Below, in pieces: positions 52,062-63,518 of a stretch of 64,000 bases of DNA (position 1 is its first letter; each line of letters begins with the position of its first letter). Both the position numbers and the translations under genes were made by a program. This DNA comes from an uncultured Desulfobacter sp. (GTDB lineage: Bacteria > Desulfobacterota > Desulfobacteria > Desulfobacterales > Desulfobacteraceae), in assembly GCA_963665095.1 (NCBI GenBank), contig OY762069.1, positions 3,840,001 to 3,904,000 on the forward strand, given 5' to 3'. Under the pieces are notes generated by a model. It saw only the letters and a program-made list of their open reading frames with translations, was not told the origin of the DNA and made no database searches.

Positions 52062-52376
52062 TGATACCTTAGCCCCTCTTTATCAAACCCGCATATATAG
52101 TTCTGACTCTTCTGCACACATCCTCCCATAAATTTCATGCCGGAAGGCAGGTTCAGGGCTTGTAACTTGCTTATTGTTTGATGCAGCTTGCCAATAAAAT
52201 TGATTATCACCGGATAAAAAAACATTTAAAAATAAGGGGTTCCCTGATAGACATACATTCAGGTCGATGATAGGACACTAATCGGGGGTTAATCTCCATT
52301 GTTTTGATTGTCTGCTTTTTATTTTAAGCAGAAACTGTTTCCGGGTTGAAAGTACGCGAACTGGTAAAATACGGAA

Positions 52377-52440
52377 TCTGCCTATTGGCCTATTCTGTAT
52401 ATCACCATATCCGCTCATTCTGCCTATTTCACTGTTAGCG
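52377..52440 (+). other. attI-like integron recombination site
   Basis: GCCTATT-TCACT-GTTAGCG (L box, 5-nt spacer, R box) preceded by two more GCCTATT repeats; no hairpin; GTTAGCG matches R'' AGCTAAC at the end of the next ORF (6/7). Confidence 0.6.
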
Positions 52441-52495: not shown

Positions 52496-52867
52496 TTGAC
52501 AATAGTTTTCATCATTCTTTGTGTTTCTGTATATATTTTGGAGGGAATACCAATTAACCCTTTTGCTTTTTGGAATATGGTCCCTCTTGTTCTTGGATAT
52601 ATAGTATTGAAGAGTAGCTTTAAAAGCAAAAGCTATGCCAATAAATTGGGGGGTATTGGATTCGCTACAGGTGCGACCATCATAGTCTTTTTTAGTCATT
52701 TCGCATGGTTTTTTGATTGGTGGGCAACTAAAACTGGTTCATCTACAGCTGGCCTTATATTTATTTTTATTCCGCTATACGCAATTGGCGGTAGTCTTGT
52801 TCTGGGATTAATAACATCACTAATTGGAGTGATATGCGATAAAACCATAAACGTAAAAAAGCTATGA
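52496..52867 (+). CDS. Cassette 1: small hypothetical membrane protein
   Basis: AAGGA RBS and TTG start; about 4 hydrophobic segments; stop 3 nt before R'' AGCTAAC. Confidence 0.75.
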   Translation: MTIVFIILCVSVYILEGIPINPFAFWNMVPLVLGYIVLKSSFKSKSYANKLGGIGFATGATIIVFFSHFAWFFDWWATKTGSSTAGLIFIFIPLYAIGGSLVLGLITSLIGVICDKTINVKKL

Positions 52868-52870
52868 TTC

Positions 52871-52928
52871 AGCTAACCAATAAGGATTGATGCGACCTGA
52901 CAAGGTCGCTTTCAATCCATTGTTCAAG
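52871..52928 (+). repeat. Atypical attC-like hairpin at the left end of the IS91-like element
   Basis: AGCTAAC-caataa-GGATTGATGCGACC-tgacaa-GGTCGCTTTCAATCC-att-GTTCAAG. Confidence 0.65.
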
Positions 52929-53178
52929 AAGCCCGGGTTTCATATGGGTAAAGATTGATTGTGGTGCAGGCGGGGTAGGCAAGCACAGGGTGGAAATTGA
53001 TAAAAAGTGCTTGCCGGTATGCTTTAACTTTTCAATTTTGAATAATTTTGACGTCGTTCTTTGAAAAACAGGACAGGTTCAGGGTTCGTTTTTCGGCCGC
53101 AGGACGTACTCGTCCCTGACGGTTCAGAAAACCGTTAAAAAACATGTATCCTAAAACCCGTTCCCTTTACGTTGAAGC

Positions 53179-54279
53179 CTATCCGAACCCAAAATCAGGC
53201 AACGGTAAGGGGCGGATATAGTAGATGTGACATCTGAGCTTGAGGCCCGCCCCGCATTCCGGGCAAATTGGCTTTGGCGAAGATTTGGGTGTTTCTATAG
53301 GCCGCTGTTCTTTGAACCCCAGGGTTGACTGGATAAGTGAACGGATTCGTTCAAGCGGGATGGAAGATCCCGGTCCCATGAAGCCATAATATCGGATTTT
53401 CATAAATCCTGTGGGCAGGACATGCTGAAGGAACCTGCGCATAAATTCCATTGTATCAAGGGTCATTTTCCGCAGGCGCCGGCTGCCGGGCTTTTTATAA
53501 TGGAACATCACCTTCTGCTGATCGTAATGGATAATCCGGTAGTCGGAAATCGCCACTTTGAACACATAGGGGGCCAGGTATTTGATACTGTGGTGACTGG
53601 AAACGGCCTGGGAATTTACGTTGAACGGCTTTGACCAGACGTCCGGAGCAATACTTTGAAGTATTCCGGCCGTATTCAGCTGGGTTTTAAGCTTTGCTCT
53701 GAACACCTTGGACATGGCTTTGACCGGAGCGAAGAAGGCCGGACGGCAGGGATGCCATTTGCCGTCGGTCCGGGAATATGCTCCGCCGGGAACAACATAA
53801 TGGATGTGCGGATGATACTGCATGGTCCGTCCCCAGGTGTGAAGGACTCCAAAAAAGCCGGGCAGATCACCGCCGATGAATTTGCTGTCCCTGGCAAAGG
53901 CTTTAAGTGTCTGTGAGGATGCCGCAAACAGTGCCGCATAGGCCTCCTTCTGGTTGCTTCGAAACAGAGCGCGCAATTGTTCCGGGATGGTAAATGTTAT
54001 CAGAAAATGAGGGCCCGGCAGTTGTCGTTCCAGCTGCCGGTCACGCCACTGGCGGGTTTTATGGTACTGGCATATGGGGCAGTGACGGTTTCCACAGGAA
54101 CGAAAACCGAAATGTATCCGGCCGCAGCCGGTACAATCATAGACCACCAGGCCGCAGGCAGACGTCCGGCAGGAAATGATTGCCTTCAAGGCTTTTATGT
54201 GATTTTTTGGAATGCGGGTTTTATACCGATGGAGGTATTCCCGGGCTGACCGGGCAAAAATGTTTTGAATGGCTCCCAT
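53179..54279 (-). CDS. IS91-family rolling-circle transposase
   Basis: Zn-binding CRT...C..C...SCGNRHCPICQ; HUH in LHTWG...HPHIH; YLAPY (YxxxY); FLQHVLPTGFMKIRYYG. Confidence 0.92.
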   Translation of the reverse strand: MGAIQNIFARSAREYLHRYKTRIPKNHIKALKAIISCRTSACGLVVYDCTGCGRIHFGFRSCGNRHCPICQYHKTRQWRDRQLERQLPGPHFLITFTIPEQLRALFRSNQKEAYAALFAASSQTLKAFARDSKFIGGDLPGFFGVLHTWGRTMQYHPHIHYVVPGGAYSRTDGKWHPCRPAFFAPVKAMSKVFRAKLKTQLNTAGILQSIAPDVWSKPFNVNSQAVSSHHSIKYLAPYVFKVAISDYRIIHYDQQKVMFHYKKPGSRRLRKMTLDTMEFMRRFLQHVLPTGFMKIRYYGFMGPGSSIPLERIRSLIQSTLGFKEQRPIETPKSSPKPICPECGAGLKLRCHIYYIRPLPLPDFGFG

Positions 54280-54281
54280 GG

Positions 54282-55151
54282 CTACACCTCCTTCATCAGA
54301 TCATTGATAAGTCCGCAGGCGTGTTCATGCCCCTGGGTGGTCAGATGCAGGTAAACCATGGTGGTGGTCAGACTGCTGTGGCCCAGATACTGCTGGATGC
54401 GCCGGATGTTGACACCTGCTTCGAGCAGATGGGTGGCGTAGCTGTGGCGAAGGGTGTGGATGGTGACCCGTTTTGTGATGGGCAAAGAGGTCAGTGTCTG
54501 TCTCAGGGCTCCCCTGACGGAATTGCTCCTCATGGGTTCTTCTGCTGTTGAGGCTTCTTTGCCGTTGCGTCCAAGTTTTGGAAAGATCAGTTTGGGGTTG
54601 CGATGGGTGGCCCAGTATTCACGCAGAATAAAAAGTGTCTTTTCAGGCAGCGGCACGTATCGGTCCTTTGCGCCTTTGCCCCGATGGACATGGATGAACA
54701 TGCGCTGGCTGTCAATGTCCCTGACCTGGAGGCTCAATCCCTCATTGAGCCTGAGACCGCAGGAGTAGACAGTGGTCAGGTAGGCTTTGTTCCAGGGTGT
54801 CCGGACAGCAGTAAGAATGGACTTAACCTCGTTAATACTGAGTACGGATGGTAACCGCTGTTCCCGTTTGGCATTAATCAGGGCAAGCGTATGCCAGTCC
54901 CGCTGCAGCACATTGATGAAGAAGAACTTTATGCCGCTGTAGCAGATACGCATGGTGGCGGCAGACCATTGATCAACGTTTTTGCGATGGAGAAAATAAT
55001 CCTGCAGTTCCCGCTCGGTGATTTCATCAGGGGTTTTGCCGAAGAAATCGACCAGCATACGGATAGCGCGGGTGTAGTTCTTTTGAGTGGAAGTGCTCAT
55101 CCCGGCAAGTTGCAGGGCCCTCATTGATTGTTGATAATAATCGCTCATCAT
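54282..55151 (-). CDS. Tyrosine recombinase (SAM_4-type N-terminus; not an IntI)
   Basis: [54 protein letters not shown] before MMSDYY. Confidence 0.92.
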
Positions 55152-55278
55152 ACCGTCTCCTTTCATGTGAAGGGTTAATTGGATTGGCGTCCAGATACGA
55201 TACGATGAAAATGACGGGCAATGCAACTTGCCGATTTTATTAATTAGAGTAGTTGTTTGGCTGCCGCGTAGCGGCTTA

Positions 55279-55405
55279 CTTGAACAAGCCGCTCCAGCCG
55301 ACCCGGGGGGCCTAGCGACTTTTGAAAGACCTTGATTTTTGAAAGGATTGGGCTTTTACAACGCGCTCGGCAATTTGCCCCGGTCGGCTGAGCTTGTCGT
55401 TGTGC
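55279..55405 (+). repeat. attC site (long type)
   Basis: CTTGAAC-aagcc-GCTCCAGCCGACCCGGGG...CCCCGGTCGGCTGAGC-ttgtc-GTTGTGC; homologous to 62694-62815. Confidence 0.88.
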
Positions 55406-55432: not shown

Positions 55433-56173
55433 ATGTTGCTTTCCACTAAAATTGCGATTTGCTCCTCAATTATTGCGTTCGGGGCACTGGCTGTTTCTAT
55501 AGCATCTCTTTGGAAGACTCATCTTTCAAAATTCAATCCAGTATCAGCTGTTGGCCGTATACGCCATCGCATTTATCCGATCAAAAATGAGGAACAACGT
55601 TGGTTTATTTCAAGTTTCGACATACCGCTAACCATAACAAACGATGGTGCTCGTACTGGGAAGATATTGGATCTTCGCCTCATACTACATTTCCCAGAAA
55701 TTCCAATTCCAAACAATCAAGAAAGTATTAAGCCGACATTTGAAATAAGCCCTTCTGATGCACGGAAAATAGACAAAAGAAGATTTGAATGGATTGAAGA
55801 AATTGTGATAGGAGAATGGATGCCTTTTATTATTCTTCCTAAAAAAACAATCAGAAAACATATAGTTTTTGAAACGCGATGGGATGACCCTGTCATTCAA
55901 AATCAAATAGAAGCGGAACTTGAACTACTTACCGATTCCTCTATAAAATGGAAAAAAGTCTGTAGTTGGAATTTGTTTCTTGATGCCGCATCTTGGGGTG
56001 AGCGTGCAAATCGGGGTACATCTTTTTATTATCACCCAAAAGGATTTCAGTTTGATTATGGCAAGTGTTATCCCAAAGACCTTCATAAATATACAGGATC
56101 AAAGGAAGAGATACCGCTTAACGGATATGATGCGGCACCATCATATTTAGATTTTCCAGAAAATAAAGAATAA
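55433..56173 (+). CDS. Cassette: hypothetical protein with N-terminal TM helix
   Basis: AGAGGA RBS; 246-aa AT-rich ORF filling the space between two attC sites. Confidence 0.8.
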   Translation: MLLSTKIAICSSIIAFGALAVSIASLWKTHLSKFNPVSAVGRIRHRIYPIKNEEQRWFISSFDIPLTITNDGARTGKILDLRLILHFPEIPIPNNQESIKPTFEISPSDARKIDKRRFEWIEEIVIGEWMPFIILPKKTIRKHIVFETRWDDPVIQNQIEAELELLTDSSIKWKKVCSWNLFLDAASWGERANRGTSFYYHPKGFQFDYGKCYPKDLHKYTGSKEEIPLNGYDAAPSYLDFPENKE

Positions 56174-56184
56174 GCTAAATATTT

Positions 56185-56311
56185 GCACAAAACGCTGGAG
56201 AGGGACCAGGCTTACTGCGCGGCCTTTCGGGAGTGCCTGGTCCAGGAAAATTAAAACTTTTATCGGAGCTTTTAGGGTTTAAAAGCCTGGCCCCTCAGCT
56301 CCCCGTTGGCC
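56185..56311 (+). repeat. attC site with eroded R'' box
   Basis: GCAC-aaaac-GCTGGAGAGGGACCAGGCTT...AAGCCTGGCCCCTCAGC-tcccc-GTTGGCC; expected R'' is GCACAAC. Confidence 0.82.
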
Positions 56312-56344: not shown

Positions 56345-57718
56345 ATGCATATGCAACGTATGGACTGGGAAAAGTTGTTAGCTGAAGAACGGTGTGGTTC
56401 TGAGACAAAAAAAAGTAATGATGGTCGAAGTCAATTCCAAAAAGATATTGATAGGATTACATTTTCAAGCTCATTCCGAAGATTGGGAAGGAAAACGCAA
56501 GTTCACCCGCTGAATGAAAACGATCATATACATACTCGTTTGTCTCATAGCTTGGAGGTTGCCTGCGTTGGAAGAAGCCTTGGCCTTATGTTGGGGTATT
56601 TTTTAGAATCTATAAAGGAACTCCCCAAAAATATAACCCCTTCAAATGTTGGTGAAATTTTACGTGCTGCCTGCTTGGCTCATGATATTGGGAACCCTCC
56701 TTTTGGCCATGCCGGTGAAGAAGTCATAAAAAAATGGTTTACGCAAGCTTTTCAGGCATCGGAATTAAAAAACAGAATAACACCTAAAGCTTATGAATCA
56801 GATTTTACATGCTACGATGGTAATGCAATGGCATTTCGGATTGTTGTATATAAAGAGTATTATACAGGTAACGGAGGGATGAGACTTACCTATCCAACAA
56901 TAGGGGCAATGTTGAAGTATCCTTGGACTTCACACTACGTCGAAAAAAAGGAAAAATTTAGTTGTTTTATTTCTGAATTTGATGTCTTTACTAAAATTTG
57001 CGAAAAATTAGGACTTAATTGCATAGAAAAATCTATTGAGGAAAGAAAAGCGAAATTTGTACGCCATCCATTGGCATTTATGGTCGAGGCAGCAGATGAT
57101 ATTTGCTATAAAATATTAGATATAGAAGATGCAGTTGAGTTAGGTCTGTTGGACCCTTGCTTTATGGAACAACAATTCAAATCTAAATTACGCCTAAAAG
57201 ATGAAGAGAATGAACTTTTAAGTTCTGAATTGGTTTCAAGGAGGACGAAGAATGCTTTATTACGTGGAAAAATGATGGAGCTTTTAATATCTGATACATT
57301 TCAAGTTTTTAAGGATAATTACAATCAAATAATGGAAGGTAGCTACAACACAGGCTTAATCGATACGAAAACTAAAGAAAGTTGCAATGCCCTTAATGAC
57401 GCATATCAATACGTAATTGATACTGTGTATTCAAGTAGACGTAAAACATTAATTGAAATCGGGGCATTTTCAACAATTGGTCATTTACTAGACACACTCA
57501 GTGAGGCGGCCTTTCAAGTTTGTTTCTTAGAAAAAAATCGTCGATCTTATAAAACAAAAAAAATTTGTGAGCTATTAAAATCGAATATCCCCGATGTTTC
57601 TAAGCCAGATCCCGCATCGTTTTATTATGGACTTATGTTTGCTTTAGATTATGTAACAGGAATGACTGATCAATATGCAACATCAATGAACAAAAAAATT
57701 TTGGGACTTGATGTATAA
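56345..57718 (+). CDS. dgt: Cassette: dGTP triphosphohydrolase (HD superfamily), candidate anti-phage dGTPase
   Basis: FRRLGRKTQV, HTRLSHSLEV, LAHDIGNPPFGHAGE, DGNA, EAADDICY, DYVTGMTDQYA. Confidence 0.92.
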   Translation: MHMQRMDWEKLLAEERCGSETKKSNDGRSQFQKDIDRITFSSSFRRLGRKTQVHPLNENDHIHTRLSHSLEVACVGRSLGLMLGYFLESIKELPKNITPSNVGEILRAACLAHDIGNPPFGHAGEEVIKKWFTQAFQASELKNRITPKAYESDFTCYDGNAMAFRIVVYKEYYTGNGGMRLTYPTIGAMLKYPWTSHYVEKKEKFSCFISEFDVFTKICEKLGLNCIEKSIEERKAKFVRHPLAFMVEAADDICYKILDIEDAVELGLLDPCFMEQQFKSKLRLKDEENELLSSELVSRRTKNALLRGKMMELLISDTFQVFKDNYNQIMEGSYNTGLIDTKTKESCNALNDAYQYVIDTVYSSRRKTLIEIGAFSTIGHLLDTLSEAAFQVCFLEKNRRSYKTKKICELLKSNIPDVSKPDPASFYYGLMFALDYVTGMTDQYATSMNKKILGLDV

Positions 57719-57723
57719 AATTC

Positions 57724-57775
57724 GGCCTGCATTGCACCTGACTCGCGGAGCTCGCCGATGAATTTTACGTTATGT
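57724..57775 (+). repeat. Short attC site with eroded R'' box
   Basis: GGCC-tgc-ATTGCACCTGACTCGCGGAGCTCGCCGATGAAT-tttac-GTTATGT; expected R'' is GGCCAAC. Confidence 0.65.
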
Positions 57776-57811
57776 GTAAGATGTAAGAAAATAAAGGATC
57801 ATCATGAAATA

Positions 57812-58412
57812 TGAACTTTAGAACACGTTTATCCTTTGTCTTAGTAGCCAGTCTGCTCATCAAACGGTCGTGGTTCACCCTGTCAAAGAATTTTGACAGA
57901 TCCATGTCAACGGTATATCCGTACCCTGAAGCCAGATGATGCCTGGCCCTGAAGATTGCTTTATGCTGAGATTTTCCCGGCCTGAATCCAAAACTCGAAT
58001 TAGAAAAGGAAGGGTCCCAGATCTCTTGCAGAACCTGGCCTATTGCCTGTTGGATCAGACGATCCAGAATAGTGGGAATACCAAGCAGTCTTACGCCTCC
58101 CCCTGGCTTTGGAATTTCTTTCCTCCTGACCGGGGATGGCTTGTACCTGCCGTTTAACAGGTCTTCCCTGATTTTAGGCCAATGGCGTTTAAGGTATCCC
58201 GGCAGTTGCTCAACAGTCATCTTGTCGATACCGGGTGCCCCTTTGTTACCACGGACCCGTGCTAGTGCTTTAAACATATTTCCCCTCTCAAGGATCATCT
58301 CCATGAGCCTGGGACTTTTTGCCAGATGTTCGGTAAACAGATACGCTACAGTTATTTCAGGCGGCTGCTGCATGATAACCATAAGTAATATGCTCCTAAT
58401 AATCGTTTTCAT
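57812..58412 (-). pseudogene. ltrA: Truncated class C group II intron reverse transcriptase
   Basis: RVRGNKGAPGIDKM, YKPSPVRRKEIPKPGGGVRLLGIPT, DMDLSKFFDRVNHD; stops before PQG and YADD. Confidence 0.88.
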
Positions 58413-58888
58413 TTACCCGAACCGCTGGTCCGGGCACCGTTCGGGCCTTCACCGGGGTGAGTCCTCCGTGTTGTTCACAGCTCGTTTCCACCGGCTAATA
58501 TACCCTCTGCTGACTTCTCCCATGCGGTCAGGACAGGTTACCCTGCCCTCAGCCGTAAGGCACATGGGAGACCTCCCGGGGTAAACACATGTCTTTCGGT
58601 ACGTGGGCGCCGGGTTTACGGACACCCTATAATGGATAGAGGACTTCGTCTTGTTGTGCAGACTCGTCCCAGTGTGGACGCCTTATACCCGATTTCTGTA
58701 CGTCACCCCGTACCTTTGCGGTACCCTGCCTCGGCAGGGCGGCTTCCTTCCGAAGTACCGTCGCCGGCACTCCGTTGCCATACCGCTATACCCTTCGCCT
58801 CCATCTGGCTGGGTTTGGGACTTGCCTTGACTTCCAAATACGGAAATCATAGGCTCACCCTTAAGAGCATGTGCCGTGCCCGGCACAC
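57812..58888 (-). mobile_element. Group IIC-attC intron, 3'-truncated
   Basis: 5' end GTGTGCCGGGC at 58888 directly after bottom-strand TTGT of an attC; about 470 nt of RNA domains, then the RT ORF. Left boundary approximate. Confidence 0.88.
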
Positions 58889-58935
58889 ACAATCCAAATG
58901 AAGACGGATAAACCGCTTATTTGGAAACGTTAGGC
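58889..58935 (+). repeat. attC site whose R'' is split by the IIC intron
   Basis: ACAAT-CCAAATGAAGACGG-ATAAA-CCGCTTATTTGG-AAAC-GTTAGGC. Confidence 0.88.
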
Positions 58936-59661: not shown

Positions 59662-60029
59662 ACGCAGATGGAAACAAAATCATCACCACAATGGAGTGAA
59701 GTGGACCCCATGTCAAGACCGATTTTAACGTTTTTTAAGCTACATTTTCTCTGTTTCTAATTTCGAATCAGCCTGTTAAAGACCCTCTTTTCCGGCATAT
59801 TTTTCTTGATATTTAATACCGCTATGTTATCCTCCCGCCGCCAACCCGGAGGATAGGGCAATGCTGGGAAGCAACCTGAGCGCCGTGGCTGGCGACGAAG
59901 ACATGGGGGCAGTATACGTTTAATGTATGCTGTCCTTCCCCCATGTTTTTGTCCTTAATGCGTTAAATCCTCGCGCCTTAGCGCGAAATCAATACCCCGT
60001 AGGGCCGCCGGAGGCATCAGGCCTTTCCT

Positions 60030-60836
60030 TTAAGCCGCTCGATAGACCGAAAACGGCACCTTATACCCCAGGGCTGAATGAAGTCTCTCCCGATTATAAA
60101 ACCCGATAAACGCTTTTAACGATTGCTGAGCCTCTCTTACCGTTCTGTAGTCCTTCAAATAGACTTCTTCGTATTTAATCGTTCTCCACAGCCGTTCCAC
60201 AAAAACGTTGTCCAAGGCTCTGCCCTTTGAATCCATGCTGATTTTGATGTTTTTAGCCTGGAGTATCTTCAAAAATTTTAATGAAGTGAACTGACTACCC
60301 TGGTCAGTGTTGAAAATCTCAGGTGTCGATACAATCAATGCCTCCTCAAGGGCCTCAATACAAAATGTATTCTCAAGGGTGTTACTGAGGCGCCATGAAA
60401 GGACATATCTGCTAAACCAATCCATAACCGCCGATAAGTACATAAATCCGTTTCCAATTCTAATGTATGTGATATCTGTACTCCATACCTGATCTGGCCT
60501 GTCAATTACGGCATTTTTCAGCAAATAGGGGTAAACTTTATGGCTTTCATCCCTCCTTGTTGTTTTAGGTCCTGGGTAAATCGCTTCTATTCTCATCAGC
60601 TTCATCAGGCGCTGTACTCGTTTCCTGCTTACCGGATACCCCATATTGTTCAGCCAGGCTGTAAGCCTACGGCTTCCATAAAAGGGGGTTTTGGTATGCT
60701 GCTCATCAAGCAGATCCATAAGGGTTAATGTATACGGGCTTATGGCTACCGGCCTGTAATACAACGCCCCTTTTGAAACCTGAAGCAGTTCACACTGCCG
60801 GTTAATGCTGATGGAAGGATGTTGTTTATCTATCAA
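60030..60836 (-). CDS. IS3 transposase OrfB
   Basis: WSTDITY, FNTDQGSQF, DNVFVERLWRTIKYE, YNRERLHSALGY. Confidence 0.92.
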   Translation of the reverse strand: MIDKQHPSISINRQCELLQVSKGALYYRPVAISPYTLTLMDLLDEQHTKTPFYGSRRLTAWLNNMGYPVSRKRVQRLMKLMRIEAIYPGPKTTRRDESHKVYPYLLKNAVIDRPDQVWSTDITYIRIGNGFMYLSAVMDWFSRYVLSWRLSNTLENTFCIEALEEALIVSTPEIFNTDQGSQFTSLKFLKILQAKNIKISMDSKGRALDNVFVERLWRTIKYEEVYLKDYRTVREAQQSLKAFIGFYNRERLHSALGYKVPFSVYRAA

Positions 60837-60846
60837 CCCCCTTCTG

Positions 60847-61131
60847 TCAGAGATTGATTGTATTAACCTTTTTTTTTAACCAGTCATTCTCAACTTCGAG
60901 CTGACCGATTTTCTTATATAATTCGTCTATTAGATTCTGAGTATCATTTGGGCTTTTCTTTTTCGCTGATGAAAACAACGTCGGAAGACCCTCTATCGCT
61001 TCTTTCTTCCATCTGTTTAACATAGTTCGATGAACCTGGTATTTGGATGACAACTCCGCAAGAGTTTCATTTTCTCGAATCACATCAACTACAACTTTAG
61101 CTTTGAACTTTCCGGTATAATTTTTTCTCAT
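60847..61131 (-). CDS. IS3 transposase OrfA
   Basis: KFKAKVV...TLAELSSKYQVH...WKK HTH; LYKKIGQLEVENDWLKKK. Confidence 0.9.
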   Translation of the reverse strand: MRKNYTGKFKAKVVVDVIRENETLAELSSKYQVHRTMLNRWKKEAIEGLPTLFSSAKKKSPNDTQNLIDELYKKIGQLEVENDWLKKKVNTINL

Positions 61132-61220
61132 GGACCTCCTTTTTCGGTACAAATTTGAACCGGGTTTTTATCACCTCATATGTACCTTAGCAACTGGTTC
61201 AAATTTCGGGGTCCATTATA

Positions 61221-61801
61221 CCTCCTTGCGGAGTTCCTTTTAGCGGATAAACAAGTGATCCGTCCGGCATTGCGATTGGGGCCTTTAGCCACCGTTCAAC
61301 ATACAAAAGTACCCAGCGACAATCTGTGTGTTTTACTACAGCTCTCATCAAAAGTTCATGACTGATATTGTCAAAAAATCCTTTGACATCAAGATCCAAC
61401 ACCCAGTCATACCGCCAGCATCTTTTGCGTGCTTCCCCCACGGCATCCAGGGCTGACTTGTTTGGCAGATAACCATACGAGTCCGGATGAAAATGATGCT
61501 CTAATAACGGTTCGAGATACTGTTTTACAACCATCTGGGCGACACGATCTCCCACAGTTGGAATACCAAGGGGCCTCATTCGGCCATCCCCTTTTGGTAT
61601 CTCTATACGCGCTACCGGAGGAGGGAAATAACTGCCGGAAGACATCCGGTTCCATATTTTGAAAAGGTTATTGGTAATATCCTTTTCAAAATCAACTATG
61701 GACTGATTATCTATTCCAGCCCCACCACGGTTTGCTTTCACGCATTTGTATGCTTCCCAAACTTGACGCTTTGAGATAATAAACGACTTTACTTTTTTCA
61801 A
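61221..61801 (-). pseudogene. ltrA: Class D (RmInt1-like) group II intron RT, cut by IS3 after PQGG
   Basis: VKANRGGAGID, KIWNRMSSGSYFPPPV, RPLGIPTV, DLDVKGFFDNI, GTPQGG then IS sequence. Confidence 0.9.
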
Positions 61802-62027
61802 CAGAATCCTTCCCTATACGGGTTGTTCTTATGTTAAAAGTTGAACGACGCAACCCCTTCGCTCCAGTCCCATTACAGCACCTTCTTCACTACTACGAGT
61901 TGCTCCGCCCCTGTGCTCCGCTTCGGTACTCTGATCCTTGTGGTGCTTCCACTTGGATTTCTCCCTTAGCATCGGAACGACAGGTTCCCATGTTCCATAA
62001 GAAAGCCTAAGATATGTTCATGCCGCC
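61221..62027 (-). mobile_element. Internal fragment of a class D group II intron abutting domain V of a IIC intron
   Basis: RT ORF plus about 225 nt of upstream non-coding RNA; no GUGYG 5' end visible; joins the IIC domain V in a C-run at about 62026-62031. Confidence 0.75.
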
Positions 62028-62693
62028 CCCCGGCGTACGGATCTCGTACCAAGGCGGTTCGGCTGGTATGAATAGAATCGGTTGTAGGTTATCCCACCGA
62101 TTTTATCGGGCTTTGGGCAAAGTCATGCTATGGAAATTTCGACCACTGCCGCATTATTTCCATAAAATCCTTCTACTTACTCACCACAACCATTTACCCA
62201 AGCCATTCGGCCCGGGTACCGTTCAGGCCTTCATCGGGGTGAGGCCTCCGGGTGTACTTCTCCCATGACAGGGAGGCCCGGCTCGTTTCCTTCCGACTAC
62301 TATGCCCTCTGCTGACTTCTCCCATGCGGTCAGGACCGGTTACCCGGCCCTCAGCCAATCCGGCACATGGGAGATCTCCCGGGGTAAACACATGTCTTTC
62401 GGTACGTGAATGCCGGGTTTACGGACATACCCTGTAATGGATAGAGGACTTTGCCTTGTGTGGCAGGCTCGTCCCGGTATGCGCGCCTTATACCCGATTC
62501 CTGTACGTCATCCCGTACCTTCGTGGTGCCTTGCCTCAGCAAAGCGGCTTCCTCCCGAAGCACCGTCACCGGTACCCCGTTGCACTACCACTACACCCTT
62601 CGCCTCCATCCGGCTGGGTCTAAGACTTGCCAAATGTATTGGAATTCTATACATTTGACTCACTCTTAAGAACATGTGCCGTGCCCGGCACAC
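62028..62693 (-). mobile_element. ORF-less group IIC-attC intron
   Basis: 5' GTGTGCCGGGCACGGCACATG at 62693; 62190-62693 aligns by eye with 58410-58888; only about 130 nt separate it from domain V (GAACCGCCTTGGTACGAGATCCGTACGCCGGG, 62060-62029). Confidence 0.85.
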
Positions 62694-62884: not shown

Positions 62885-63121
62885 ATGAAAACAGTAACAT
62901 TTACCGAATTTCGCAAAAACGCATCAGAATTATTTTCTAACGTTGAACAAGGGGAAGTTTTCGTTGTAATTCGACACGGGAAACCCATTGCAGAGATCTC
63001 ACCAGTTTCAACAAATAGAAACTTACCAGCGTGGAAACAGCCTGCTTTACGACTTTCATCTAAGGGGGCGGAATTATCATCTGCAATTATAGAAGAACGG
63101 GACAATGAAAATATTTTTTGA
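62885..63121 (+). CDS. Phd/YefM-family antitoxin
   Basis: MKTVTFTEFRKNASELFSNVEQGE...IRHGKPIAEI; GGAGG RBS. Confidence 0.92.
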   Translation: MKTVTFTEFRKNASELFSNVEQGEVFVVIRHGKPIAEISPVSTNRNLPAWKQPALRLSSKGAELSSAIIEERDNENIF

Positions 63122-63518
63122 TTCATCAGCTTTTGCAAAACGCTATATTGATGAACCAGGTAGCGATTCGGTTGAGGCTCTATGTCAGAATGCAACCGAA
63201 CTAGCATTATCAGTCATTTGTATTCCTGAAATTATATCAGCTATGAATCGTCGTATTAGAGAAGGCTCAATTTCACAAACTCAATATCGCCAGATAAAAA
63301 CTTGTTTGGCGACAGAAACCGCTGATGTCACAATAATCAATTTATTACCTGAAGTCATTGCGGATGCGATTCAGGTACTTGAAACTAATACTCTAAGAGC
63401 TATGGATGCGTTGCATGTTGCTTGCGCACTGCAATGGAATGCAGATCTTTTTGTTTCATCTGACAATCGCCAATTGAACGCAGCTCACAATGCAAAGCTA
63501 TTAACTGAAAAAGTATAA
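63105..63518 (+). CDS. vapC: VapC-family PIN-domain toxin
   Basis: FFDSSAFAKRYIDE, LRAMDALHVA, FVSSDNRQ; overlaps the antitoxin. Confidence 0.92.
   Translation: MKIFFDSSAFAKRYIDEPGSDSVEALCQNATELALSVICIPEIISAMNRRIREGSISQTQYRQIKTCLATETADVTIINLLPEVIADAIQVLETNTLRAMDALHVACALQWNADLFVSSDNRQLNAAHNAKLLTEKV

Follow-up and report, generated by a model that had tools for sequence, protein, structure and literature searches.

The window analysed here is a stretch of 64,000 nucleotides from an uncultured Desulfobacter sp. (GenBank assembly GCA_963665095.1, contig OY762069.1, positions 3,840,001 to 3,904,000 of the forward strand). It contains an integron cassette array in which an element of 2408 bp (52878-55285), encoding an IS91-family HUH/Y2 transposase and a tyrosine recombinase, interrupts the attC site of a host cassette (cassette 1) at its R'' box. 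The element is real, widespread and well delimited. Its kind is catalogued, and this variant of it has a target rule and an anatomy that we did not find in print. It carries an attC-like hairpin of its own, and the course we favour, as a reasonably probable one, is that the HUH enzyme makes a single-stranded circle which the element's own recombinase joins to the AAC of the host R'' box. Both ends of the mobile unit are bounded by a common AAC, so that the position of the joint is ambiguous by three bases.

Anatomy of the element and its empty site

Both element genes lie antisense to the array, between the R'' box of cassette 1 (52871) and the box CTTGAAC (55279), and an attC body follows. 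This arrangement had been described in an earlier, sequence-only reading of this DNA, all of whose coordinates proved right. The features of the element and of the site that it splits are as follows.

52871-52877, plus strand: R'' box of the host attC, AGCTAAC; its AAC (52875-52877) is the left crossover core
52878-52928, plus strand: attC-like hairpin of the element, made of a 6-nt spacer, a stem, a 3-nt spacer and the box GTTCAAG (52922-52928)
52929-52934, plus strand: conserved AAGCCC after the hairpin
53179-54279, minus strand: tnp, IS91-family HUH/Y2 transposase of 366 aa (Pfam Y2_Tnp and Zn_Tnp_IS91)
54282-55151, minus strand: tyrosine recombinase of 289 aa (Phage_integrase and Phage_int_SAM_4)
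55263-55278, plus strand: short palindrome GCCGC-N3-GCGGC plus TTA, a terIS-like end conserved family-wide
55279-55285, plus strand: right box of the element, CTTGAAC, comprising the tetranucleotide CTTG and then the right AAC core; it is complementary to 52922-52928
55286-55405, plus strand: displaced host attC body, with the spacer AAGCC, L'' GCTCCAGC (55291-55298), L' GCTGAGC (55387-55393) and R' GTTGTGC (55399-55405)

In the direction of its own genes, the element has the parts of a cassette in cassette order (core, genes, inverse core, stem, G|TT), so that it resembles a cassette inserted upside down. Its right end has the composition of an IS91 terIS as defined in the accessible part of PMC13181058, with GCCGC-N3-GCGGC-TTA-CTTG in this copy and TTC-GTTC in a second subfamily. 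Since the right palindrome folds merely at chance level in its 61-nt context, the support for it is its conservation.

Removal of 52878-55285 had been predicted to restore a normal attC, and this empty allele is present in contigs of two runs from one sample (X4 and X5), where the joint 52874>55283 skips 2408 bases and shares 3. As also expected, the empty allele carries the long attC; it is without the hairpin. The attC body at 55286-55405 differs between copies and rejoins 52877 in the empty allele, and it thus belongs to cassette 1 and not to the element. The joint is not listed in the contigs of the other six runs. Cassette 1 reaches a depth of 489 in run X4 versus about 135 in its flanks, so the empty form there may represent extra cassette copies rather than an excision product. 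The segment 52441-52877 stands at about 3.5 times the flank depth in the same run, mostly in the empty form, by extra copies or amplification. In run X11 the sequences that border the element are different again.

The genome holds three identical copies, A1 (the window copy), A2 and A3, each of which starts with AAC and the hairpin and ends with the right box, while their flanks differ. Alignment of the flanks of homologous elements likewise gave the pattern that the sequence-only reading had anticipated, a constant hairpin followed at the other end by an attC body that varies from copy to copy. Copy A3 lies in an array adjoining an intact intI; a group II intron interrupts its right box, and beyond the intron stands an attC body that is of a different type. 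Copy A2 interrupts an ordinary gene, and removing the element with one AAC closes the reading frame (439 codons open), which fixes the frame only modulo 3; its target has neither an unusual fold nor an evident L'' box. The interrupted gene (G000:C1:3315400-3319130) encodes about 408 aa, and its C-terminal part presumably resembles nucleoside deoxyribosyltransferase or TIR-like domains. A diverged pair, B1 and B2 (about 41% transposase identity), has the layout of the A copies and precedes attC bodies, so that four of the five copies in this genome are at attC. The B1 recombinase carries a 1-base frameshift (G000:C1:3326479-3326485) and that of B2 is intact. The host R'' box matches the R' box of the upstream cassette in 6 of 7 bases for A1 and in 7 of 7 for both A3 and B1; nothing clear was seen for B2 or for the rows of G087. 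The attC sites of the host genome were found by seed searches, and a stricter genome-wide scan gave 10 matches.

A solo hairpin (L004; G000:C1:2928254-2928306, minus strand) stands in an array of the same genome, with the body of the element gone and GTTTTCC and a two-gene cassette next to it; by eye, this cassette resembles a toxin-antitoxin pair. That another cassette follows the solo hairpin shows that the GTT of the hairpin is at times recombined too. Four more distant IS91-type transposases (about 33% identity) are encoded at G000:C1:114292-115305, 134239-135252, 932170-933252 and 3330900-3331913, and no close recombinase match adjoins any of the four.

The hairpin at 52878-52928 folds with a z-score of -6.2 on both strands, with 0 of 200 shuffles as good, and the host attC body reaches -3.4 on the bottom strand and -2.4 on the top strand. 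In the predicted circle junction all seven box pairs are closed (-19.3 and -19.2 kcal/mol). The earlier claim that circularisation yields an attC-like site holds, with the refinement that the spacers, at 6 and 3 nt, differ from the 5 and 5-6 nt of a canonical attC, which also has extrahelical bases on its R'' arm. Spacers of mostly 6 and 3-4 nt recur in relatives, which have this layout in common, and the hairpin may work like an att site even though it is not a canonical attC.

Changes in one end box are matched by complementary changes in the other. In the 64 intron-free elements whose two boxes could be read, the pairs are GTTCAAG/CTTGAAC (31), GTTGAAC/GTTCAAC (29) and GTTGGAC/GTTCAAC (4, with a wobble pair). 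These boxes are more than 2 kb apart in the integrated element and flank the hairpin only in a circle or a dimer. At locus L203, two copies of a 273-bp mini-element form a head-to-tail dimer; where they meet, the right box CTTGAAC is joined exactly to the hairpin, and an attC body follows. Mini-elements of about 180-750 bp (L203, L155, L180, L302 and L304) are non-autonomous and have both ends present, and several are at attC. Similar ones recur at separate sites of genome G214, so the ends of the element likely suffice in cis.

Position of the joint and choice of target

At a fixed register, the left junctions read AAC in 73 of 78 cases, ATC in three and ACC in two (79 rows were collected, from which L007, a false anchor match, was removed), and all five variants have AAC on the right. 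The middle base of the left triplet is thus host-derived and the joint lies after the second base. A joint at the IS91 tetranucleotide, CTTG| or GTTC|, is excluded by the same five junctions. IS91 itself inserts directly 3' of a host CTTG or GTTC beside oriIS, and the host side here is AAC, ATC or ACC in the 78 left junctions. There is one AAC in the empty site and one at each end of the filled site, an outcome in which a shared core and a 3-bp duplication look alike; the five variants appear to favour a shared core. The joint fits a crossover of the IntI type, which according to the part of PMC12901181 available to us falls between the first two bases of GTT, and it also fits a HUH joint after C. 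Right ends with a third base other than C were sought in 401 genomes with a pattern that was too loose, and the full palindrome was present in 0 of 30 fetched loci.

A related transposase is encoded in 69 of 301 genomes of the class. To this family set we added 60 metagenome loci, and a scan for the right-end motif, in which 121 loci were fetched of an estimated 1100 or so stretches in the species collection, extended it to Desulfobacterota, Planctomycetota, Gamma- and Betaproteobacteria, Nitrospirota and others. The recombinase gene lies upstream of 63 of the 86 junctions with enough DNA; the other 23 include mini-elements and remnants. We defined a strict attC by our own attC score with a threshold of 10, and took 3000 AACs from the same loci as controls. 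In the first set, 58 of 143 right junctions enter a strict attC body, and in the larger set 73 of 189 do so, versus 46 of the 3000 control AACs. By subfamily, the counts are 68 of 161 for CTTGAAC and 5 of 28 for GTTCAAC (subfamily 2). When junctions that score at least 10 in either direction are oriented, 71 of 75 favour the R'' side, three are mirrored and one is a tie.

Targets below the threshold often retain part of the site. An L''-like box 5 bp beyond the AAC exceeds the 95% control level at 59 of 113 non-strict targets, and the 99% level at 41, and some of these targets are probably truncated or long attCs. Genome G267 contains 13 complete copies, of which the six that were compared are 99.3-100% identical; it has an L''-like box at 9 of 13 targets and no unusual downstream fold at 11 of 13. 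Because these hairpin-less sites mostly keep the L''-like box, the target would seem to be the R''-5 bp-L'' half-site rather than a whole attC. Retention of the box where the fold is not unusual also suggests a double-stranded two-box site comparable to attI or attG. Siting away from attC, which the sequence-only reading had named among the signs against its proposal, does occur in part: one of the three copies here is at a non-attC site, and 12 of the 13 in G267 fall below the strict attC threshold. The element therefore prefers attC by way of its R''-L'' half, without restriction to attC.

The same AAC is used far from the genome of the window. On the E. coli plasmid NZ_LT985243.1 a relative splits the attC of aadA1, and the aadA2 attC on the same plasmid is unbroken. 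This element has no close match in complete E. coli genomes and only itself at 99% identity or more in the plasmid set; it is therefore rare in those sets. Locus L344, from a plasmid of Shewanella sp. ANA-3, has a left end at 2501-2754 that shares 95% identity with the left end on the E. coli plasmid, and an unrelated gene follows it; no right end was found within the locus. Four of five Vibrionaceae plasmid copies (L338, L339, L345 and L346, but not L340) precede bodies that by eye are attC-like or VCR-like. The alphaproteobacterial and Chloroflexota relatives L341 and L342 have divergent ends and no evident attC. A Herpetosiphon copy has its right end in AAT, and its second plasmid copy is 72% alike.

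The two enzymes and the proposed mechanism

The transposase scores 359.9 bits with NF033538 (cut-off 125) and contains HPHIH at residues 156-160, YLAPY at 234-238 and CxxC pairs, as expected of an HUH/Y2 enzyme of the IS91 family. The recombinase has a complete catalytic set (R134 K159 H232 R235 H258 Y267). It falls below the IntI profile TIGR02249 (171 bits, cut-off 265) and is without the IntI-specific helical insertion, with 22 residues where IntI has 53. Neither element protein matched a DEDD (IS110-type) transposase family, and no RVT_1 match (reverse transcriptase/maturase) was found within the element.

All six catalytic residues are in one frame in 25 of 34 element recombinases; in 8 the C-terminus is in another frame and one is broken. 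In that branch, in subfamily 2, the catalytic segment is in the -1 frame after 8-9 consecutive A residues in 10 of 11 sequences examined (L107, L283, L113, L034, L030, L103, L027, L028, L033 and L115), with the frameshift or slippage site at about codon 232, before H-x-x-R. In one copy of G374 the A-run is one base shorter than in its siblings. The shifted segment has 959 synonymous versus 587 non-synonymous codon differences, with 204/1420 and 72/1564 in the other frames. The shifted catalytic C-terminus is thus under purifying selection, and the family recombinase is kept functional.

In the mechanism that we favour, the HUH enzyme would nick at the IS91-type tetranucleotide beside the right palindrome and yield the array-top strand as a circle, acting either on the integrated copy or on a circle first excised by the recombinase, which it would amplify. 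In the circle, the two end boxes would pair and complete the hairpin. The recombinase would then exchange one strand at AA|C between this fold and a double-stranded R''-5 bp-L'' half-site, an exchange modelled on the joining of folded attC to double-stranded attI or attG by IntI. IntI is reported, in the part of 10.1101/2022.09.11.507474 available, to recombine double-stranded GWT sites through a single cleavage. Insertion would rebuild a working attC at the right end, so that the array would stay usable by IntI. The rebuilt attC has been used by others, by an intron in copy A3 and, in run X1 at low depth, in the loss of cassette 1 and the element between two GTT cores. An IntI-sister recombinase without the IntI insertion, coupled to an HUH-made circle, might thus make the element an autonomous, self-mobilising inverted cassette acting on double-stranded R''-L'' half-sites; to this broader picture we give about even weight.

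Several points weigh against this mechanism. An ori nick of the IS91 type calls for a host tetranucleotide, and none is conserved at the left end, which leaves initiation unexplained; the difficulty would disappear if the recombinase excised a circle that was then copied by the rolling-circle route. The division of labour between the two enzymes is an inference. The tolerated middle base of the left triplet does not separate the enzymes, because the IS91 tetranucleotide also tolerates changes of its third base (GTCC and GTAC in Table 2 of PMC13181058, seen in part) and a HUH joint at NANC| fits as well. Two of the five variants (ACC, i.e. GGT) are outside the GWT consensus of IntI. The motif used to collect the junctions required AAC at the right end, and related elements do not count as independent cases. 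As many as 116 of 189 junctions do not enter a strict attC, and subfamily 2 reaches only the 5 of 28 given above. The L203 dimer comes from one assembly and could stem from a second insertion or from rolling-circle read-through. No free circle junction is listed in the contigs of the eight runs, contigs being prone to drop rare forms. Our tree, which had long branches and few outgroups, did not place IntI together with the element recombinases; for the sister relation we rely on 10.1101/542381, which in the part available places IS91-borne recombinases without the IntI insertion in an integron-like group together with IntI.

We consider the recombinase a likelier maker of the joint than the HUH enzyme, both roles being predicted. 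The second assignment corresponds to IS91-style transposition throughout, in which the HUH enzyme would excise and join at a target NANC|, the hairpin would be the oriIS palindrome, and the recombinase would resolve dimers or excise copies. A bona fide IS91 transposase, a ter-ori polarity as in IS91, a third-base tolerance resembling that of IS91, the tandem dimer L203 and the insertions into ordinary genes all agree with such a course. The tetranucleotides (CTTG, or GTTC in the other subfamily) nevertheless lie 5' of the AAC, where the five variant junctions exclude the joint; the further conserved box, at 5 bp from the joint, gives the layout of a two-site recombinase; and a 4-nt target leaves the covariation of the 7-bp boxes unexplained. 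We therefore regard IS91-style transposition as possible but rather unlikely.

Insertion by the host IntI of circles that the element makes, at attC top strands or secondary sites, is improbable. This genome does have an intact intI, IntI inserts at GWT sites, and the hairpin has been used at its GTT at least once, as the solo hairpin followed by another cassette indicates. Only folded bottom strands of attC recombine with IntI, however, according to the accessible part of PMC11023631, so that sense insertions at attI or R' would be expected, whereas 71 of 75 junctions are oriented to R''. Of five genomes tested, G267 has its 13 copies alongside only an 82-residue C-terminal fragment of intI, G008 has two copies and no intI above the cut-off, and the other three have intI. 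Dependence on IntI, which the sequence-only reading had named as a sign against its proposal, is unlikely, because copies have multiplied in a genome without intact intI.

The plainest alternative is that 52923-55399 is an ordinary gene cassette, to which the long attC belongs and which IntI moves. The unit formed after insertion does resemble one, and the solo hairpin and the X1 deletion would suit occasional losses of such a unit. This reading is hardly tenable, however: a cassette is bounded by G|TT on both sides and retains the attC downstream of it, whereas in identical copies the long attC differs or is absent and the hairpin is constant, the empty allele keeps the long attC without the hairpin, and a relative splits the known attC of aadA1. 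As a main route it is refuted by the empty allele and by the copy inside a gene.

The host array and comparison with known systems

Three further features belong to the array around the element.

52434-52440, plus strand: R' core GTTAGCG, start of host cassette 1 and crossover of an attI-like site; it matches the complement of the R'' box at 52871 in 6 of 7 bases
52496-52867, plus strand: open reading frame (ORF) of host cassette 1, 123 aa, no Pfam family
55433-56173, plus strand: ORF of the next host cassette, 246 aa, no Pfam family; replaced by another cassette in run X1

The attI-like site (52200-52440) has no adjoining intI. In contigs of other samples, different first cassettes join at 52434 and 8-bp insertions occur near 52380. 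Two attC sites, at 56183-56195 of the window and at G000:C1:2927690, have an R''-spacer part about 3 nt short (…GCACAAAAC GCTG…) and are possibly scars. The arrays are rich in group II introns and their fragments (57765-58900 and 61199-62660 in the window; 923156-925065 and from 928450 onward in G000:C1), with antisense introns in R'' boxes and sense introns directly after R'. An IS3-family element lies within a group II intron remnant at 59700-61160, an HD-domain (dGTPase-like) cassette at 56345-57718 and a YefM/PIN toxin-antitoxin cassette at 62885-63518.

The element offers a testable role for the unexplained recombinase gene of a widespread IS91 subgroup, and it brings to three the kinds of element that home on integron attC sites, one of these sites being in a class 1 resistance integron. 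Its insertion separates a cassette from its attC and yet rebuilds a usable site, which alters the set of units open to IntI, and annotation software would mistake the element for a cassette. The minimal ends, seen in mini-elements below 300 bp, suggest a compact, host-independent integration system. If the proposed mechanism is true, these elements form a third class among the attC parasites, one that has a chemistry of its own, and they offer a living model of how integron-type recombination between a folded strand and a duplex could have arisen before IntI; a recombinase that handles a folded strand without the special helix of IntI would bear directly on the evolution of integron integrases.

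With the IS91 family (IS91, IS801, IS1294 and IS1294b, as described in the accessible part of PMC13181058) the element shares the HUH/Y2 transposase, a strand-specific polarity, a palindrome and tetranucleotide upstream of tnp and a hairpin at the downstream end. It differs in having its joint within an AAC common to both ends and not 3' of CTTG or GTTC, and in possessing an additional gene for a recombinase, end boxes that pair and a second box in the target. IS91-family elements with a tyrosine recombinase gene, which we take to be catalogued in ISfinder as ISShvi3, ISSod25, ISWz1 and others, are likened to it here by description only; the element and such catalogued elements (ISShvi3, ISSod25) are probably the same group. 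Romine et al. reportedly linked the ISSod25 integrases with attC sites in 2008, which may be real prior art. The part of PMC9229058 that we could consult describes ISShvi3 beside an attC, interprets the arrangement as a new structure of cassette and states that attC was not interrupted by any insertion sequence. In the accessible parts of the open-access literature, we found neither AAC limits, nor an element-borne hairpin, nor an R'' target rule for IS91 elements with a recombinase, and the available portions of PMC11322121, PMC7923331, PMC3469429, PMC8876359 and PMC11970703 held nothing further on target choice.

Group IIC-attC introns and IS1111-attC elements are known attC parasites (PMC3001079; 10.1101/2025.06.18.660453; both in part), and like the element they insert antisense near the 5' end of attC. 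They move, unlike it, by retrohoming or with a DEDD recombinase and a guide RNA, and they have no cassette-like att site. The IntI system (attC x attI and attC x attG) resembles the element in its folded hairpin with paired core boxes, its AAC/GTT core, its related recombinase and a predicted reaction between a single and a double strand. The element departs from that system in encoding its own enzyme without the IntI insertion, in spacers of 6 and 3 nt, in inverted insertion at R'' and in working without intI. Elements of the CTXphi type integrate a folded single strand into double-stranded dif, and here too a rolling-circle single strand with a hairpin att site is joined to a double-stranded two-box site. 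The CTXphi-type elements borrow XerCD from their host, whereas the element described here encodes its recombinase and targets attC halves.

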